Origin: Gammaproteobacteria bacterium | GTDB lineage: Bacteria > Pseudomonadota > Gammaproteobacteria > Eutrophobiales > Eutrophobiaceae | Reading direction: 5' to 3' | DNA length: 54,142 bases | Assembly: GCA_038922795.1 (NCBI GenBank) | Contig: JBCKWI010000005.1 | Span: 1 to 54,142 of the forward strand | In this document: positions 4,664 to 50,079 of the stretch, piece after piece | Layout of the letters: each line of letters opens with the position of its first letter | Numbering within the stretch: position 1 is the stretch's first letter | Translations under genes and position numbers: made by a program | The notes under the pieces: generated by a model | Databases searched by the model: none | What the model saw: the letters and a program-made list of their open reading frames with translations, nothing else | Told to the model about the DNA's origin: nothing

Positions 4664-6226
4664 ATGCAGGATATAGACGACATCCCAAGCCGCCCCTTTG
4701 GTGGTTTTGATTGGTCTGAGCATCCTGAAGTGACATCACTGATAGGCCATCTCATTGAAGGGTACATTGACTGGCTCAAAGGAAGTAATACGAACAAACG
4801 CATTAGAGACAAAGACAAGGTAAGACAACACCTGACTCATTTCGTGCTGGAAGCTTACCGTAACTACATGGCCTTACCTGAACTCTGCATGGGTGTCCAT
4901 TTAGGCAAGCACTATTACCAGGATATTGCCTGTAGACGTTACCATCCTAACCACCTCACCTACAGTCGCGTTATCAATGTCACGGACTTCCTGGTTGACA
5001 TGGATTATCTGGAAATGCCCTTTGGAAAGAGTGGCTGGAAAGCGAAACCAAGTGAACGGCGGACCACACGCTACCGGGCCACAGACAAGCTGATTTCTCT
5101 TTGTAAGGAATATGGGATTAACCGCTTCATGATTATCCCCTACCCCTATACAGAGCCTGAAATCATTATCCTGAAAGACAAGAAGGCTAAAAAGCAGTCT
5201 TCCGGGAAGGTAATGGATTACACGGATACACCCTTTACCCTGCAAGCCCGCAAGACTCTGAAGAAGATAAATACCTTCATAGGCAAACACTGTCTCAACC
5301 TGGATATCACCGATAAGCAACATCATGAACTGCAATCACGTCTACGCCACCATAATGACCCTGGTAGTGAAGCCTGTATGGACCTGACCCGTGTCCATCT
5401 AAGACGTATTTTCAATAACGGCTCTTTTGAAGAAGGGGGACGTTTCTATGGGGCATGGTGGCAACAGATCCCCTCTGATTACCGTATATTTATTACTATC
5501 AATAATAAAAAGACCTCACAACTCGATTATTCCGGTATGCATTTCTCGATTATGTATGCACAAAAGGGACTGGAATTACCCATGGAAGACCCTTATGCCT
5601 TAGAAGGGTATGACAAGGCATTACGGAGTGATATCAAGGTCGCCTTCAATGCCATCATTAACTGTCAGACTAAAAGACAAGCCATAGAGACCGTTAATCA
5701 CTACATCCAAAAAGGAGAACTCTCATCAGACCTCATTAGTGGCAAGAAAGTTATAGAGGAATTCATCAAACTACATCCGGCCATCAAAGACATGATAGCC
5801 AGTGGGGAAGGTGTCAAGGTTCACTTTATAGATTCCCAGATAGCAGAGAAGATATTGCTTAAAGGTATAGATGCCGGTATCTGTGTTCTCCCGATACATG
5901 ACGGCTTTATCTCTACTGCTTCAACAATACACATCCTCAAATGTTGGATGTTTGATGCATTTCATGAGGTGACAGGACAACCTGCTACAGTGAGACCAGA
6001 AACCTTTAACCTGTCTATTATTGAAGACGTTGGACAACATTCCCCTTACTGGGTAACTCATCCTGATGGTACGACTACATGTAACGGGCCTTTAGAAGGG
6101 AAAGCAACTGCTTACTCTACTGTGCATAATAAAGTGGCTCTGTGGAAAGGACTGACCGAGGACACCATTCATAAGACCATCAGGGATACTGTCTATAGCG
6201 AGTGGAAAGTAGTACATCATCCTTAA
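4664..6226 (+). CDS. Family-A DNA polymerase/T7-RNAP-like palm protein (TV-Pol-like); no exonuclease domain recognised
   Basis: GGRFY...WQ, motif A-like QLDYSGMH, motif B-like RSDIKVAFN, motif C-like LPIHDGFI. Confidence 0.7.
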   Translation: MQDIDDIPSRPFGGFDWSEHPEVTSLIGHLIEGYIDWLKGSNTNKRIRDKDKVRQHLTHFVLEAYRNYMALPELCMGVHLGKHYYQDIACRRYHPNHLTYSRVINVTDFLVDMDYLEMPFGKSGWKAKPSERRTTRYRATDKLISLCKEYGINRFMIIPYPYTEPEIIILKDKKAKKQSSGKVMDYTDTPFTLQARKTLKKINTFIGKHCLNLDITDKQHHELQSRLRHHNDPGSEACMDLTRVHLRRIFNNGSFEEGGRFYGAWWQQIPSDYRIFITINNKKTSQLDYSGMHFSIMYAQKGLELPMEDPYALEGYDKALRSDIKVAFNAIINCQTKRQAIETVNHYIQKGELSSDLISGKKVIEEFIKLHPAIKDMIASGEGVKVHFIDSQIAEKILLKGIDAGICVLPIHDGFISTASTIHILKCWMFDAFHEVTGQPATVRPETFNLSIIEDVGQHSPYWVTHPDGTTTCNGPLEGKATAYSTVHNKVALWKGLTEDTIHKTIRDTVYSEWKVVHHP

Positions 6227-27911: not shown

Positions 27912-28725
27912 GTCATTGCGAGCGCAGGTCTACAGGAAGTACAGAATTTCGGTGGAGAGTCTAGCCGGGAGCAGGAACCGGGTCGAACAGGGGGTTGTTT
28001 ACTGGATGCTGGTCGCTACGGACTGACGCATAGGGATATGCTAATGCCGCGATCACAAGGAGGTGAATGAGCGGCCCTGTCCTTTCGCGGCATTTCCCAT
28101 ATCCTATGGGTCGTTTTCACCAGCATGATGGTAAAGATACTTAATCAGAGGTTCCTTAGAACATTCTTCGCGTGCAGGGCACGCTCCTACAGGATGACGA
28201 CCTATGTAGGAGCACGCCCTGCGTGCGACAAAAATCATTCGCGGTAGTGGTCCGCTCCTGCAATGAAGATTTCTCGCTACGCTCGAAATGACAAACTGCG
28301 GTCGAAATGACAAACATTTTCTGTCATTTCGAGCGCAGGTCTACAGGAAGTACAGAATTTCGGTGGAGAGTCTAGCCGGGAGCAGGAACCGGGTCGAACA
28401 GGGGGTTGTTTACTGGATGCTGGTCGCTACGGACTGACGCATAGGGATATGCTAATGCCGCGATCACAAGGAGGTGAATGAGCGGCCCTGTCCTTTCGCG
28501 GCATTTCCCATATCCTATGGGTCGTTTTCACCAGCATGATGGTAAAGATACTTAATCAGAGGTTCCTTAGAACATTCTTCGCGTGCAGGGCACGCTCCTA
28601 CAGGATGACGACCTATGTAGGAGCACGCCCTGCGTGCGACAAAAATCATTCGCGGTAGTGGTCCGCTCCTGCAATGAAGATTTCTCGCTACGCTCGAAAT
28701 GACAAATCATTTTCTGTCATTTCGA
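27912..28725. repeat. 411-bp tandem duplication of a composite REP/MITE cluster
   Basis: 27919-28295 matches 28330-28706; contains a GTAG-type REP pair, an IS5-like TIR and nested ~51-bp modules. Confidence 0.9.
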
Positions 28726-30579: not shown

Positions 30580-30764
30580 TTAAGGAGCCTCTGATTAAGG
30601 TGTCATTTCGAGCAAAGCGAGAAATCCTTGTCTCGACCAAAGGGACGACCCCATGGACGGGGGAGGTAGAGTTGCGCCGGGAGCAGCAACCGAGAGATCT
30701 CATTAAGATCCCTCACTTCGTTCGGGACGCCTACGGCGAATTTCTCCTTTTAGTCGAAATGACA
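30580..30764. repeat. Composite REP element with one 48-bp module (30646-30693)
   Basis: Reverse-complement homologue of 49846-50079 and 53108-53223. Confidence 0.85.
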
Positions 30765-38012: not shown

Positions 38013-39893
38013 TTATGGTGTGGCAAGAACTTTTATCTGATCATTAAATATTGAGCTTGCTTTACCTTTTTCAAATATTTCATTATCAGGGGGAGTAATA
38101 ATTGAATTCATTCCCTCGAAATAACTCAACAAATCACCCGGCGCTGCTGTTCTGTCCTGCTCAATACCTTCAGCTGGATTATTAATGGCCGCCCCGGCAA
38201 TAATCACCAAGCCGCGATTATTATTCTCCGGGTTACCTGCGCCATCCAATACAAGGCAATCAGTTCCACTCGTACACACTGTCGCACTTCCGGGAGGACT
38301 CTCTGATTCCGGATAAGCTACATAAATCAATTTATGCCAGTCATTTTTTACAAACCAATCGGGTATTTCGCCATCATCAATATTAATATCGTATTGAATT
38401 GAGCCGACACTAATATTGCCATCCAGAATCTCTCCGATGCTCAAGACAAGTGTACTGGCACGCTGTCCATCATAAAGAACAGGATTGAACCATGCAGCAA
38501 ATGCTGCCAGTCCTGAGTCATAAGTGTCTGAAAGCTGAACGCTAACATTCTCTACATTGTTGTTTGATATATCCAGAGTCCTCGCTCTTGATGAAGTTGA
38601 TTCAGGATTCGCAATAATTGCATCATCAATATCTGTATATTCAAATGTGATGCTGTATGTTCTGCTGACGTTATATGTAATATCAATATCCTCTCCAAAT
38701 AAATTATGGGTTCTGGTGTAAGCTGTGGTTATCGTTTTCGTTCCATTGCATTTCATATAATTTTTTGGTTCAACATCTACCGTATTTGTCCATTCACACT
38801 GTCCAACAGCTTTGGCAATTTGAATCGGGCCATTAAGAACGCCAAAAATAGAATCCGTGCAATCATCTGATCTCATACAATTTTCGTCCGGATCAGGAGT
38901 ATCGGGGTTGCCTGAAGTGGTCAAAGTACCGTTATTTATATCCCATGCAACAGACTGTTCTGTATCAAATGGATTCCTGTTATTTGAACCATCAGGAAGG
39001 TCTTCCAGAAAATGATAAGGCAAATGTCCCTGCCATGTATTTATCACTGTCTTGAATGCAGATGTGGATGGATCAGAAAACGGACTCAGCCAGGGATAAG
39101 CATCATAATCAGTTTGATATTTTCTCAATGCCTGTGCCACTTCTCCCAATACGCGTTTTTCAACCGCCTGCATTAATTCGTCTTTGGTCAGCAGAATATA
39201 ATTATCCGTATTACTTGTTTGAATAACCTTGTTACCACTACTGAAAACAGCTTCGATATAATTTGTATGGTCATTAGGCCCAGCATCCCTGTTCTGATTA
39301 TTTTGCGGGACTCCTGGAGCAAAGATAATGGCTGCTATATCGGCCATGCCATTTACTTCAAGATTGCCGGTAGAATCACTGACAGTTTCGCTATTTTGAC
39401 GCGCCAGTTTTTTGGGATTATTCCTGAAATTATCTGCTACCACATACCACAAACGCTCACCATGACTGTCCTTAATGTCCTCAGCTTCTAGCGTTTTATA
39501 TGGAAACCTGCCAATAGAAGTTCCTCCACTCAATGAACAGCTGCCGCCAGCAGAACCATTATTGTTTATGTCTGCGCATGGTAAATAACCCGGTCCATCA
39601 ATCGGATCAGTTCCTGATTTGGCATCAATTTCCGGGAACATGACTGCATAACCAATTAACGCCTGCTTGGCCTGATTAAGAGCCATTCTTGTCCGTTCTT
39701 CACCACCCACCCTGATTAAATTTGCATTGAGCTTATTAACGAGCAGGTAAGATGTGCCGACTATCAGAACCAGCATAAAAGCCAGCACTACTGCGCCTGA
39801 TTGCTGTTTTTGCGAATCATGATTAAACACAAGATTTCTCGCTTCACTCGAAATGACAGAGGAAAGAAAGATTCCTCGGTCTCTGTTCGACAA
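38013..39893 (-). CDS. Large PilX-like pilin/adhesin; start uncertain because of repeat insertions
   Basis: KQQSG/AVVLAFMLVL; AL.QAKQALIGYA, PGYLPCAD. Confidence 0.8.
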   Translation of the reverse strand: MSNRDRGIFLSSVISSEARNLVFNHDSQKQQSGAVVLAFMLVLIVGTSYLLVNKLNANLIRVGGEERTRMALNQAKQALIGYAVMFPEIDAKSGTDPIDGPGYLPCADINNNGSAGGSCSLSGGTSIGRFPYKTLEAEDIKDSHGERLWYVVADNFRNNPKKLARQNSETVSDSTGNLEVNGMADIAAIIFAPGVPQNNQNRDAGPNDHTNYIEAVFSSGNKVIQTSNTDNYILLTKDELMQAVEKRVLGEVAQALRKYQTDYDAYPWLSPFSDPSTSAFKTVINTWQGHLPYHFLEDLPDGSNNRNPFDTEQSVAWDINNGTLTTSGNPDTPDPDENCMRSDDCTDSIFGVLNGPIQIAKAVGQCEWTNTVDVEPKNYMKCNGTKTITTAYTRTHNLFGEDIDITYNVSRTYSITFEYTDIDDAIIANPESTSSRARTLDISNNNVENVSVQLSDTYDSGLAAFAAWFNPVLYDGQRASTLVLSIGEILDGNISVGSIQYDINIDDGEIPDWFVKNDWHKLIYVAYPESESPPGSATVCTSGTDCLVLDGAGNPENNNRGLVIIAGAAINNPAEGIEQDRTAAPGDLLSYFEGMNSIITPPDNEIFEKGKASSIFNDQIKVLATP

Positions 39894-40019
39894 TATGTTC
39901 CCGACATTGTCTCGGTCTCTGTTCCAGACTCGACTCTACCGATTTCATCCCTGTAATCGTACCACCTACATCCTTGTAGGCGTCCAGACGCGACTCTACC
40001 TCCGGCATCCATGCAGTCG
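39876..40019. mobile_element. Triple-nested 48-bp modules (3 x 48 = 144 bp) inside a REP
   Basis: Outer 39876-39886 + 39983-40019; middle 39887-39911 + 39960-39982; inner 39912-39959. Confidence 0.85.
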
Positions 40020-40061
40020 TCACATTTGCTCGAAATGACAGCTTAAATAATTCAGGCATGT

Positions 40062-40820
40062 TCAATTGTCTTGATATCCCGGCGAAATTATTTTATCTGC
40101 CTCAGGATCATAGGTCTGGCCGGTTTTTAATTTAATTTTTGTTTCGTTGATCGGGATTAGAATCTCAACATCTTCCGGTTTGATATTGTGCGCATCGATC
40201 TGGATATATTGATTAGCAAAATTGCCCTCATAGGTATTGGCGCTGTTAACCCACGCAGTGCTTTTGTTTCCTTTTCGGTATACCAGTCCATTGACGGTGA
40301 TGCCGCCAATGACGGGTTTTTCTTCTGCAACTTCTGGTTCCGGTTCCATGAAAATGATTTCTGGCGCTTTTTCTTCAACCGGTTTCTGATGGCGCAGTTT
40401 TTCCAGCGTATTACGTTGCTGTGGCGTGGTGAACAGGCGGCCGAGATCGTCATCGGCGAAGGCATTTGGTGCTAATGTAAATAACAATATCGCCATAGCA
40501 GCAAGCACGGACATTGAGTAGAAGATATTATTTACTGGATACTGGTCGCTACGGACATCGTGTCCTCTCGCGACATTTCCTACATCCTGTAGGTCGCCTT
40601 CGCCAGTATGACAGCTGAAAGAATTTTTAGATTTATTCAGAGGTTCCTTAACATTACACCCCCATCCTGCCTCGGCTTTGGCTTCCTGCGTCGCTCTACC
40701 GCCTGCATCCATGCAGGCGTTCTCCCTTAAAAGGGGAAGGTGCTTTATGCTCGAAATGACAGGGCAGAGAAGATTTATCGTTCTTGCTCGAAATGACAGC
40801 TTGTGTATATATCGTTTCAT
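40062..40820 (-). CDS. Exported pilus-associated protein (LGRLFTT type) with repeat-derived N-terminal extension
   Basis: LGRLFTTPQQR..LE; ATG overlaps the upstream stop (ATGA); alternative start at 40514. Confidence 0.75.
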   Translation of the reverse strand: MKRYIHKLSFRARTINLLCPVISSIKHLPLLRENACMDAGGRATQEAKAEAGWGCNVKEPLNKSKNSFSCHTGEGDLQDVGNVARGHDVRSDQYPVNNIFYSMSVLAAMAILLFTLAPNAFADDDLGRLFTTPQQRNTLEKLRHQKPVEEKAPEIIFMEPEPEVAEEKPVIGGITVNGLVYRKGNKSTAWVNSANTYEGNFANQYIQIDAHNIKPEDVEILIPINETKIKLKTGQTYDPEADKIISPGYQDN

Positions 40821-44220: not shown

Positions 44221-44269
44221 CGGGACCCTTGTTTACCGTTTGTTCACGGATACTACTTCAACCTGCTGC

Positions 44270-44435
44270 GCCTTCCCCCTGGCAGGGGGAAGGTTGGGAT
44301 GGGGGTTGAGTTTCAGCCATTCCTGAGATTTCACCCCCACCTCGACAACTGTTCCCGGCGTTGTTCTCGGTCTCCGCTCCAGACTCGACTCTACCTCCTC
44401 CTTCCTTGGAGTCGTCGCTTCGCTCGGAATGACAA
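44270..44435. repeat. Chimeric repeat: MITE core + half 48-bp module (44342-44366) + full module (44367-44414) + REP arm
   Basis: Left part repeats 44510-44579; ends TCGCTTCGCTCGGAATGACA. Confidence 0.8.
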
Positions 44436-44455: not shown

Positions 44456-44679
44456 GAACCTATCTCAAAATTAGTTTTCCGCTCTTTTGACGGAAGCAAT
44501 AATCCACTGCGCCTTCCCCCTGGCAGGGGGAAGGTTGGGATGGGGGTTGAATTTCAGCCATTCCTGAGATTTCACCCCCTCGACAACTGCTCCCGGCGTT
44601 GTTCTAACTCCTGCATCCATGCAGTCGACCTCAATCCTCCCCCGTCAAGGGGGAGGAAGTTTAATTTTGAGACAGGTTC
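44456..44679. mobile_element. 224-bp MITE = 176-bp form plus a 48-bp module (44580-44627)
   Basis: Same TIRs as 35763-35938; length differs by exactly 48. Confidence 0.88.
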
Positions 44680-49820: not shown

Positions 49821-50079
49821 ATAGGACCTCTGATTAAGTTGTTATTGTCATTTCGACCGTAGGGACGCCCTTGCATGAATGCAGGCGGTAGAACCACGCC
49901 GGGAACAGTGATCGAGAAATCCGTCGTAGGCATCCCGAACGCAAGTGAGGGATCTTAATGAGATCTCTCGGTTGCTGCTCCCGGCGCAACTCTACCTCCC
50001 CCGTCCATGGGGTCGTCCCTCCGGTCGAGACAAGGATTTCTCGCTTTGCTCGGAATGACACCTTATCAGAGATTCCCTA
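49821..50079. repeat. Composite REP element in IS5-like TIRs with two modules (49866-49915, 49968-50015)
   Basis: Homologous to 30580-30764 and 53081-53223. Confidence 0.85.

Follow-up and report, generated by a model that had tools for sequence, protein, structure and literature searches.

Several kinds of small bacterial repeat invite comparison with the element described here, a module of 48 nucleotides (nt) composed of two hairpins, which lies in three copies, one inside another, at positions 39876-40019 of a 54,142-nt stretch of a gammaproteobacterial contig (JBCKWI010000005.1, positions 1 to 54,142; hereafter the window). Elements of the IS200/IS605 family have unlike subterminal hairpins and no terminal inverted repeats, and they insert in an orientation set by a short target motif without duplicating the target. 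Classical miniature inverted-repeat transposable elements (MITEs) such as Correia, RUP, and ERIC, which are mobilized by DDE transposases, have terminal inverted repeats and are flanked by target-site duplications. Elhai et al. (2008) reportedly described small dispersed repeats (SDR1-8) of 21-27 nt in Nostoc punctiforme that are nested in themselves and in each other, so that the order of insertion can be reconstructed.

The module most resembles the repetitive extragenic palindromic sequences (REPs), their composites (bacterial interspersed mosaic elements [BIMEs] and REPINs), and the REP-associated tyrosine transposases (RAYTs). Like these, it is a short, abundant, mostly intergenic hairpin repeat with compensatory stem variation (PMC3333891, PMC8266576, PMC3116915, PMC3733652; all articles given by PMC number are cited for the sections consulted). 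The Escherichia coli enzyme TnpA-REP acts on single-stranded REP DNA; it needs the tetranucleotide GTAG and a hairpin, and it cuts at C|T, one such site being GGCC|TACA (PMC3333891; the bar marks the point of cleavage or insertion here and below). A Marinomonas enzyme shifts its cut site when GTAG is altered, GTAC leading to cleavage at G|T, and GTAG was proposed to be a guide (PMC8266576). The module carries GTAG/CTAC at a hairpin foot, and its short type is inserted at C|T, the dinucleotide that TnpA-REP cleaves (PMC3333891), whereas its long type uses T|T about as often; the module has no inverted ends, causes no duplication, and shows a patchy, lineage-specific distribution among relatives. 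It differs in being a fixed 48-nt pair of unlike hairpins in head-to-tail order instead of an inverted doublet and in having G|T at its right end, and a RAYT gene flanked by the module (a REPtron) was not found in the genome, whose assembly is 73% complete.

With IS200/IS605 elements and their gene-less derivatives, the palindrome-associated transposable elements (PATEs), the module shares unlike end hairpins, the lack of inverted repeats and duplications, and oriented insertion at a target of 4-5 nt. Its target preference depends on the subfamily, as expected if the sequence of the element guides target choice (guide model of PMC8266576). However, it is several-fold smaller than the known ends-only derivatives, its cleavage points would abut the hairpins, and our searches did not find a tnpA partner ending in the two hairpins. 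Like the Nostoc repeats, with which we compare it by description only, it is a tiny structured repeat nested inside its own copies, but those repeats are cyanobacterial, 21-27 nt long, and of other sequence, whereas the module comes from Gammaproteobacteria, measures 48 nt, and combines two hairpins with a CTAC tag. With MITEs it shares being nonautonomous, intergenic, and present in high copy number, the ability to enter other repeats, and cotranscription with neighbors, but it has neither terminal inverted repeats nor target-site duplications.

REP-RAYT systems are well studied, and nested, very small repeats are known from cyanobacteria; the module adds to the REP-type repeats a variant that nests cleanly within itself. 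Our literature searches (nested REPs, cyanobacterial small repeats) did not find a 48-nt two-hairpin unit, subfamily-specific hot spots, or the copying of nests as units. Nor did they find precise self-nesting at two internal hot spots for REPs: the word "nested" occurs 0 times in the consulted text of PMC3733652 and PMC3116915, and the supplementary REP family tables of PMC3733652, which lay outside the scope of the searches, might list a relative. How REP-type repeats spread is still debated, mainly from in vitro cleavage and population traces. In the genome studied here each insertion is recorded to the base: its ends and orientation are exact, orthologous and paralogous loci supply the empty sites, and the order of events can be followed. 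The data show the anatomy of the three-level nest, the precision, orientation, and hot spots of insertion, the empty sites, and the copying of composites. The reading toward which we lean is that the 48-nt unit is a nonautonomous REP-like element, moved as folded single-stranded DNA by a Y1/HUH enzyme of the RAYT or IS200/IS605 kind acting in trans.

RESULTS

Three modules, one inside another

The genome (G000) comprises 1.92 Mb in 127 contigs and is 73% complete. Each module consists of hairpin A (25 nt) followed by hairpin B (23 nt), two unlike hairpins in direct order. The block at 39876-40019 reads on the plus strand as 11+25+48+23+37 nt: an intact inner module separates the hairpins of a middle module, and the middle module in turn interrupts the A hairpin of an outer one (Table 1). 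An earlier note on this DNA had described three co-oriented 48-bp modules (11+37, 25+23, and 48) within a GATTCC repeat arm, and both its coordinates and its parse proved exact.

The same structure emerged when full-length matches to a profile of the module were excised in rounds. The inner module was found in the first round, the middle one in the second, and the outer one in the third, so that removing first the inner and then the middle copy restored two full 48-nt modules, as the note had proposed to check. Their scores (Table 1) are like those of intact modules (median, 41.0 bits; range, 21.3-54.0). The rebuilt middle module is identical at 48/48 positions to an uninterrupted copy elsewhere in the genome (G000:C65:2282-2329), and the nearest relative of the inner module among all modules is the inner copy of a nest on contig C8 (47/48). 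Because the copies differ in sequence (inner and outer, 39/48 identical; inner and middle, 23/48; outer and middle, 24/48), slippage is excluded, in agreement with the note.

Table 1. Modules, module parts, and repeat arms in the window.
Feature	Position	Strand	Remark
Outer module, first 11 nt (start of hairpin A to third loop base)	39876..39886	+	Joins 39983-40019, 43.3 bits; uninterrupted orthologue in G001
Middle module, long-stem type, hairpin A, 25 nt	39887..39911	+	Joins 39960-39982, 41.4 bits
Inner module, intact 48 nt; hairpin A 39912-39936, hairpin B 39937-39959	39912..39959	+	44.1 bits
Middle module, hairpin B, 23 nt	39960..39982	+	Rebuilt with 39887-39911
Outer module, last 37 nt (remaining hairpin A and hairpin B)	39983..40019	+	Rebuilt with 39876-39886
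Host repeat arm, left part GATTCC, up to insertion point	39870..39875	+	Paralogous empty arms are continuous across this point
Host repeat arm, right part	40020..40040	+	G001 has the same arm around a single module
Uninterrupted copy of the same repeat arm (empty-site paralogue), 40 nt upstream; direct repeat	39832..39858	+	
Orphan hairpin A half, B half missing	44342..44366	+	A-only profile match, 20.0 bits, E 0.0015
Intact module directly after nt 25 of the orphan A half	44367..44414	+	
Intact module (TAAC variant) inserted in another repeat family	44580..44627	+	Exact empty site in G001
Intact module inside repeat arm	30646..30693	-	
Intact module inside repeat arm	49968..50015	+	

Anatomy of the module

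Statistics on hairpins and ends were taken from 160 distinct 48-nt modules, 79 from G000 and 81 from other genomes. Hairpin A starts with TCG, followed by a variable stem (5 bp in a short type, 6 bp in a long type) and the conserved loop YGYTCCNGRC. Hairpin B starts with TACC and has a variable stem, a loop containing TCCNTG, and a terminal CG. The stem pairs are 95-100% paired, each with 2-4 pair types. Pair 6-21 of hairpin A, for example, is formed in 127/131 modules (97%) as CG, AT, TA, or GC, compared with 47% when partners are shuffled, and pair 34-43 of hairpin B in 155/160 (97%), mainly as CG, AT, or GC, compared with 45%. These compensatory changes in the stems support both hairpins. 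The tetranucleotide CTAC spans the joint between A and B (nt 25-28) in 149/160 modules; on the opposite strand it reads GTAG, the signature of REPs, and lies 2 nt 5' of the A hairpin. Terminal inverted repeats amount to 0-1 nt in all 160. Between window positions 39000 and 45500, Rfam covariance models gave no matches at E values up to 1.

Modules nest at two internal hot spots throughout the genome

The profile was built from 56 distinct intact modules of G000, and its full-length matches were excised round by round across the genome. This yielded 123 modules, 88 of them intact, 24 rebuilt in the second round, and 11 rebuilt in the third. The 35 interrupted modules carry 39 interruptions, which lie at offset 11 (12 cases), at offset 24/25 (25 cases), and at offset 32 (2 cases), and the insert shares the orientation of its host in all 39 self-insertions. 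There are 24 outermost nests, which have different left flanks, and 11 of the 24 are three levels deep. The serial insertion at hot spots within the module that the earlier note had suggested is borne out by these counts, with 37/39 self-insertions at offsets 11 and 24/25, and by the uninterrupted outer module of a related genome described below.

The true number of modules exceeds 123, because the profile misses a divergent subfamily with the A-hairpin loop GGCWTCC|TGCG (for example, G000:C56:3017-3097, C1:51104-51232, and window 40697-40719). Its members appear as "orphan" B hairpins preceded by TGCGTCGCTC, and their own offset 15 is also a target.

The exactness of the unit is evident from altered excisions. 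Exact removal of the 88 intact modules created 24 junction-spanning full-length matches with a median score of 40.1 bits. With the cut shifted by 1, 2, 3, and 6 nt the median fell to about 36-38, 31, 28-29, and 24-26 bits, respectively; all cuts displaced by 1 to 24 nt gave weaker or fewer matches, and random 48-nt excisions (88 each, 10 replicates) gave none. The halves of the rebuilt modules are cognate: the mean best identity of a rebuilt to an intact module (n = 26) is 45.15/48, compared with a mean of 42.14 (standard deviation, 0.42) and a maximum of 43.69 in 500 shuffles of the B halves among nests. Since the halves are cognate and the insertions at offset 11 split hairpin A, loose arrays of independent A and B hairpins are ruled out.

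Two subfamilies with two targets

The short and long types insert at different sequences. Among 66 distinct 8+8-nt targets of the short type, C is at position -1 in 65, T at +1 in 64, C at +3 in 52, and C at +4 in 52, which gives the consensus YYC|TNCC with a C|T step. Among 27 distinct targets of the long type, T (+1) and C (+3) each occur in 25, and G occurs at +5 in 21 and at -2 in 19; the consensus is GY|TCCYG with a Y|T step, in which T|T is about as frequent as C|T. The right junction of the element is G|T. A target duplication of at least 3 nt was seen in 2/106 insertions, and a single boundary T is the sole ambiguity.

Both targets lie within the module. The A loop of a short-type host (offset 11) is a target of the long type, and the C|TACC joint (offset 25) is a target of the short type. 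The long type therefore enters at offset 11 and the short type at offset 25: long-type modules account for 11/12 inserts at offset 11 and for 0/27 at offsets 24/25/32 (Fisher P = 7e-9). Because the module itself carries both target motifs, old copies are preferred landing sites, and nests build up. Insertion is precise, in one orientation, and without target duplication, at C|T for the short type and Y|T for the long type, and nested composites, whose outer ends stay intact, are passed on as units. The nests are a natural assay of target choice, in which two subfamilies meet two targets and the resulting composites stay mobile. Landing in old copies may also offer a safe haven in which host genes are spared, and this would account for a small genome putting up with more than 120 copies.

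Nonmodule targets in G000 are loops or arms of other repeats. A TCCC variant of the repeat arm is filled in 11/18 cases and a TCGC variant in 1/32, and 41/53 arms of one spacing class are empty. The arm itself, called a REP arm in the earlier note, is the end of a small MITE-like element whose arms often form inverted pairs about 50-70 nt apart (for example, G000:C3:65708/65756, C7:6758/6827, and window 39832-39858), and the TCCC variant is the favored module target.

For the short type, the mutual information between positions in the element and positions in the target reached 0.28 bits, compared with a maximum of 0.20 in 200 shuffles. We do not rely on this signal, because composites that carry the module (repeat arm plus module, or variant A hairpin plus module) have been amplified and the pairs are not independent.

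Empty sites and a probable two-step origin of the triple nest

Two genomes of the same genus, G001 and G002, record earlier states of the locus. G001 is syntenic on both sides of the nest, in blocks of 90%, 82%, and 69% identity, and its orthologous arm holds one uninterrupted module. This module is identical to the rebuilt outer module at 42/48 positions (counted by eye), and the differences include a compensatory A-T to T-A swap in a stem. At the orthologous place in G002 two genes almost abut, with neither arm nor module. The locus is thus empty in G002, has an arm with one module in G001, and has an arm with the triple nest in G000. G001 also has an exact empty site for a second window module, that of the TAAC variant (Table 1).

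The composite of middle and inner modules occurs at two more places in G000. At C8:19346-19441 (47/48 and 47/48 identical) its host belongs to another subfamily, and at C54:3101-3196 (46/48 and 46/48) it sits in a nonmodule target. Other composites recur at C3:62014 and C25:16109, in different hosts, and on contigs C23 and C39, in different flanks. Nests are therefore copied as units, since the same composite recurs in different hosts and on different contigs. Because the outer module is common to G001 and the same composite is present elsewhere in G000, the triple nest was probably made in two steps, from an old outer module and a prenested 96-nt composite that entered it at offset 11. In this history the repeat arms, absent in G002, would have arrived first, the outer module would have entered one arm before G000 and G001 split, and in the G000 line offset 11 of the outer module would then have received the middle one, most likely with the inner module already inside.

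The recurrence of identical composites, and the clustering of modules with other repeats, could also be read as a sign of local assembly, in which existing hairpin copies recombine by cleavage and rejoining or by gene conversion, the route suggested for growing BIME arrays, with inserts copied from neighbors and without free transposition; the RAYT literature does describe strand transfer from REP to REP (PMC3333891, PMC8266576, in the sections consulted). We regard this as unlikely. The hosts of one composite differ in subfamily, contig, and flanks, which speaks against homology-driven conversion, and every insert is a complete 48-nt unit, exact at both ends. If one enzyme does both, however, the distinction from transposition is partly semantic.

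An assembly artefact, in which repeats induced misjoining in a metagenome-type assembly, would be favored by the fragmentation of G000 and by the 97% identity of the middle-plus-inner composite to C8:19343-19445. It is nevertheless extremely improbable, as the outer halves are cognate and agree with the uninterrupted module of G001, where both flanks are syntenic, the 24 outermost nests follow the same grammar, and independent assemblies also contain nests, among them a Methylobacter scaffold derived from an isolate (L039).

The module family is widespread in environmental Gammaproteobacteria

A strict pattern for the intact short-type module matched at least 118 stretches in a collection of species-representative genomes. 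Among the matches listed, nearly all are from Gammaproteobacteria (Methylobacter, Acidiferrobacterales, Lysobacterales, Thiotrichales, Chromatiaceae, and unclassified metagenome-assembled genomes [MAGs]), and the family is widespread in environmental members of this class. The excision procedure, applied to 80 of these at least 118 loci (530 kb), gave 90 modules and 15 interruptions, all co-oriented, at offsets 25 (7 cases), 24 (2), 29 (4), 32 (1), and 8 (1). C is at -1 in 71/79 and T at +1 in 73/79 of the targets in these loci. A four-level nest of the same module lies at 5604-5799 of locus L053 (JBHHYN010000007.1), from an unrelated gammaproteobacterial MAG.

Among 31 relatives, a related strict pattern found 51 copies in G000, 20 in G001, 16 in G015, 9 in G014, at most 4 in six others, and none in 21, and the reversed control pattern gave 0 in every genome. 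Within the genus the numbers are 51, 20, and 3 (G000, G001, and G002), and the other 15 genomes of the family have 0-16.

A Y1/HUH enzyme as the likely mover

Which enzyme moves the module? Its exact ends, fixed orientation, and two unlike hairpins, the lack of inverted ends and duplications, a length insufficient for a double-stranded synapse, the C|T insertion step, and the GTAG/CTAC tag all fit a Y1/HUH tyrosine transposase acting in trans on single-stranded DNA, and the hot spot at offset 25 is exactly C|TAC. G000 has four Y1 genes of IS200-like or RAYT-like kind (C13:37823-38557, C21:12759-13460, C98:2842-3705, and C7:45982-46461). Each is bracketed by inverted repeats of its own, the C98 gene by GTAG-type REPs and the other three by inverted repeats containing GGGG. 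G001 has a single Y1 gene (C15:18314-18589), and G015 also carries Y1 genes.

Several points weigh against this reading or fail to decide it. The module does not flank any of the four Y1 genes in the assembly of G000, which is 73% complete and in 127 contigs. Y1 genes are present in 7/10 module-bearing genomes and in 11/21 genomes without the module among the 31 relatives, and no Y1 gene was found in G014 (9 pattern copies, 89% complete) or in G002 (3 copies, 99% complete). When the four Y1 proteins were compared by tblastn with the 80 loci, a single Y1 gene near a module was found, in locus L037; a Y1 gene with a module 19 nt downstream in genome G009 (contig C23) shows the same arrangement. 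Since five related Y1 genes, in G006, G015, G020, G029, and G004, have no module in their loci, the adjacency is probably incidental. An enzyme as strict for C|T as that of E. coli would not fit unchanged, given the G|T right junction and the frequent T|T targets of the long type, and REPs are typically inverted doublets, whereas the hairpins of the module are in direct order. A bias toward insertion in the lagging strand would be expected, but the association of orientation with local GC skew is weak and not significant (31 versus 18, P = 0.09; 37 versus 24, P = 0.12; 37 versus 26, P = 0.21; contigs unordered). Lastly, at the 45/48 level the 39 host-insert pairs reduce to about 32 distinct ones, and the event counts overstate the number of independent insertions because many filled sites are copies of larger composites.

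The lack of a module-flanked Y1 gene in G000, with the single adjacency elsewhere, leaves some room for a module that is mobile and self-nesting but moved by another enzyme, either a DEDD (IS110-type) recombinase or a tyrosine or serine recombinase that, like integron integrases, works on folded hairpins. Such recombinases also give site- and orientation-specific insertion without duplication, and IS110-family elements are described as inserting into REPs in the consulted sections of PMC12288879 and PMC8450116. From the features of the module itself we consider this improbable: a double-stranded circle or synapse of 48 bp is physically implausible, both hairpins are conserved, with compensatory changes in their stems, the module bears a CTAC/GTAG tag, and integron R-box motifs were not seen on inspection by eye.

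If a Y1/HUH enzyme is the mover, an autonomous relative might have the form of hairpin A, gene, and hairpin B. None was found among the residual A-only (22) and B-only (47) matches, all of which are variant modules or fragments. We also considered whether CTAC acts as a guide that selects the G|T right junction, by analogy to the shift from GTAC to G|T (PMC8266576, in the part consulted); the TAAC variant at 44580-44627 fits this poorly, and the idea is speculation. Going beyond the enzyme, we tentatively raise the possibility, which we would not yet call likely, that the module is a minimal 48-nt single-strand transposon carrying its own targeting information, that the stem classes are retargeted versions of one element, and that each class holds the target of the other, giving self-propagating nests that transpose as composites. 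If true, this would be the smallest natural system from which a guide-like, element-encoded target choice of HUH enzymes can be read from genomes.

Genes around the nest and elsewhere

The nest is flanked by two open reading frames (ORFs) on the minus strand, without Pfam matches, which lie downstream of genes like those for the F and E proteins of type II secretion systems (T2SS-F-like and T2SS-E-like; a pilus or secretion operon). On the opposite strand the module has GGA in both loops, and the B loop reads CANGGAUG, which we take to resemble the CsrA binding motif. The array might accordingly be kept for a role at the RNA level, as a CsrA-binding leader or sponge in the transcript of the pilus operon; with minus-strand genes on both sides, it is the GGA strand that would be transcribed at the nest, and G000 has a gene for CsrA (C15:23913-24071). 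We think this very unlikely as an explanation of the nest. Modules between codirectional genes show no preference for a gene strand (12 antisense versus 13 sense), and an RNA role leaves the exact 48-nt nesting, the C|T targets, and the empty sites unexplained, so that binding of CsrA would at most be a secondary use.

Nineteen of the 84 outermost modules of G000 lie inside long ORFs, 12 in sense and 7 in antisense orientation, and the 48-nt unit keeps the reading frame. Because 48 nt are in frame, the module will mislead gene callers, and it will mislead assemblers too.

An incomplete nest and other repeats in the window

The earlier note had pointed to a second module, at 44342-44414, interrupted at the same offset. 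An intact module does follow nt 25 of an A half there, but the 23-nt B half of the host is absent, with a repeat arm in its place, so this is not a complete nest. The related origin that the note considered for the two nests found no support: the host half at 44342 is different, its B half is missing, and the stretch is absent at the orthologous place in G001. The site is a truncated or rearranged nest of apparently unrelated origin.

It lies beside another repeat family, about 140 nt long and containing a pair of G/C-rich hairpins of the type CCTTCCCCC...GGGGGAAGG (window 44267-44341 and 44508-44650), which is a target of the module. G000 has two copies of this repeat, compared with one at the orthologous place in G001, which is without the 44342 stretch.

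Farther upstream, at window positions 27912-28706, a unit of 411 bp is repeated 1.9 times with 99% identity. As the unit holds repeat arms and module-like A fragments, it seems that a repeat-rich stretch was recently duplicated in tandem.

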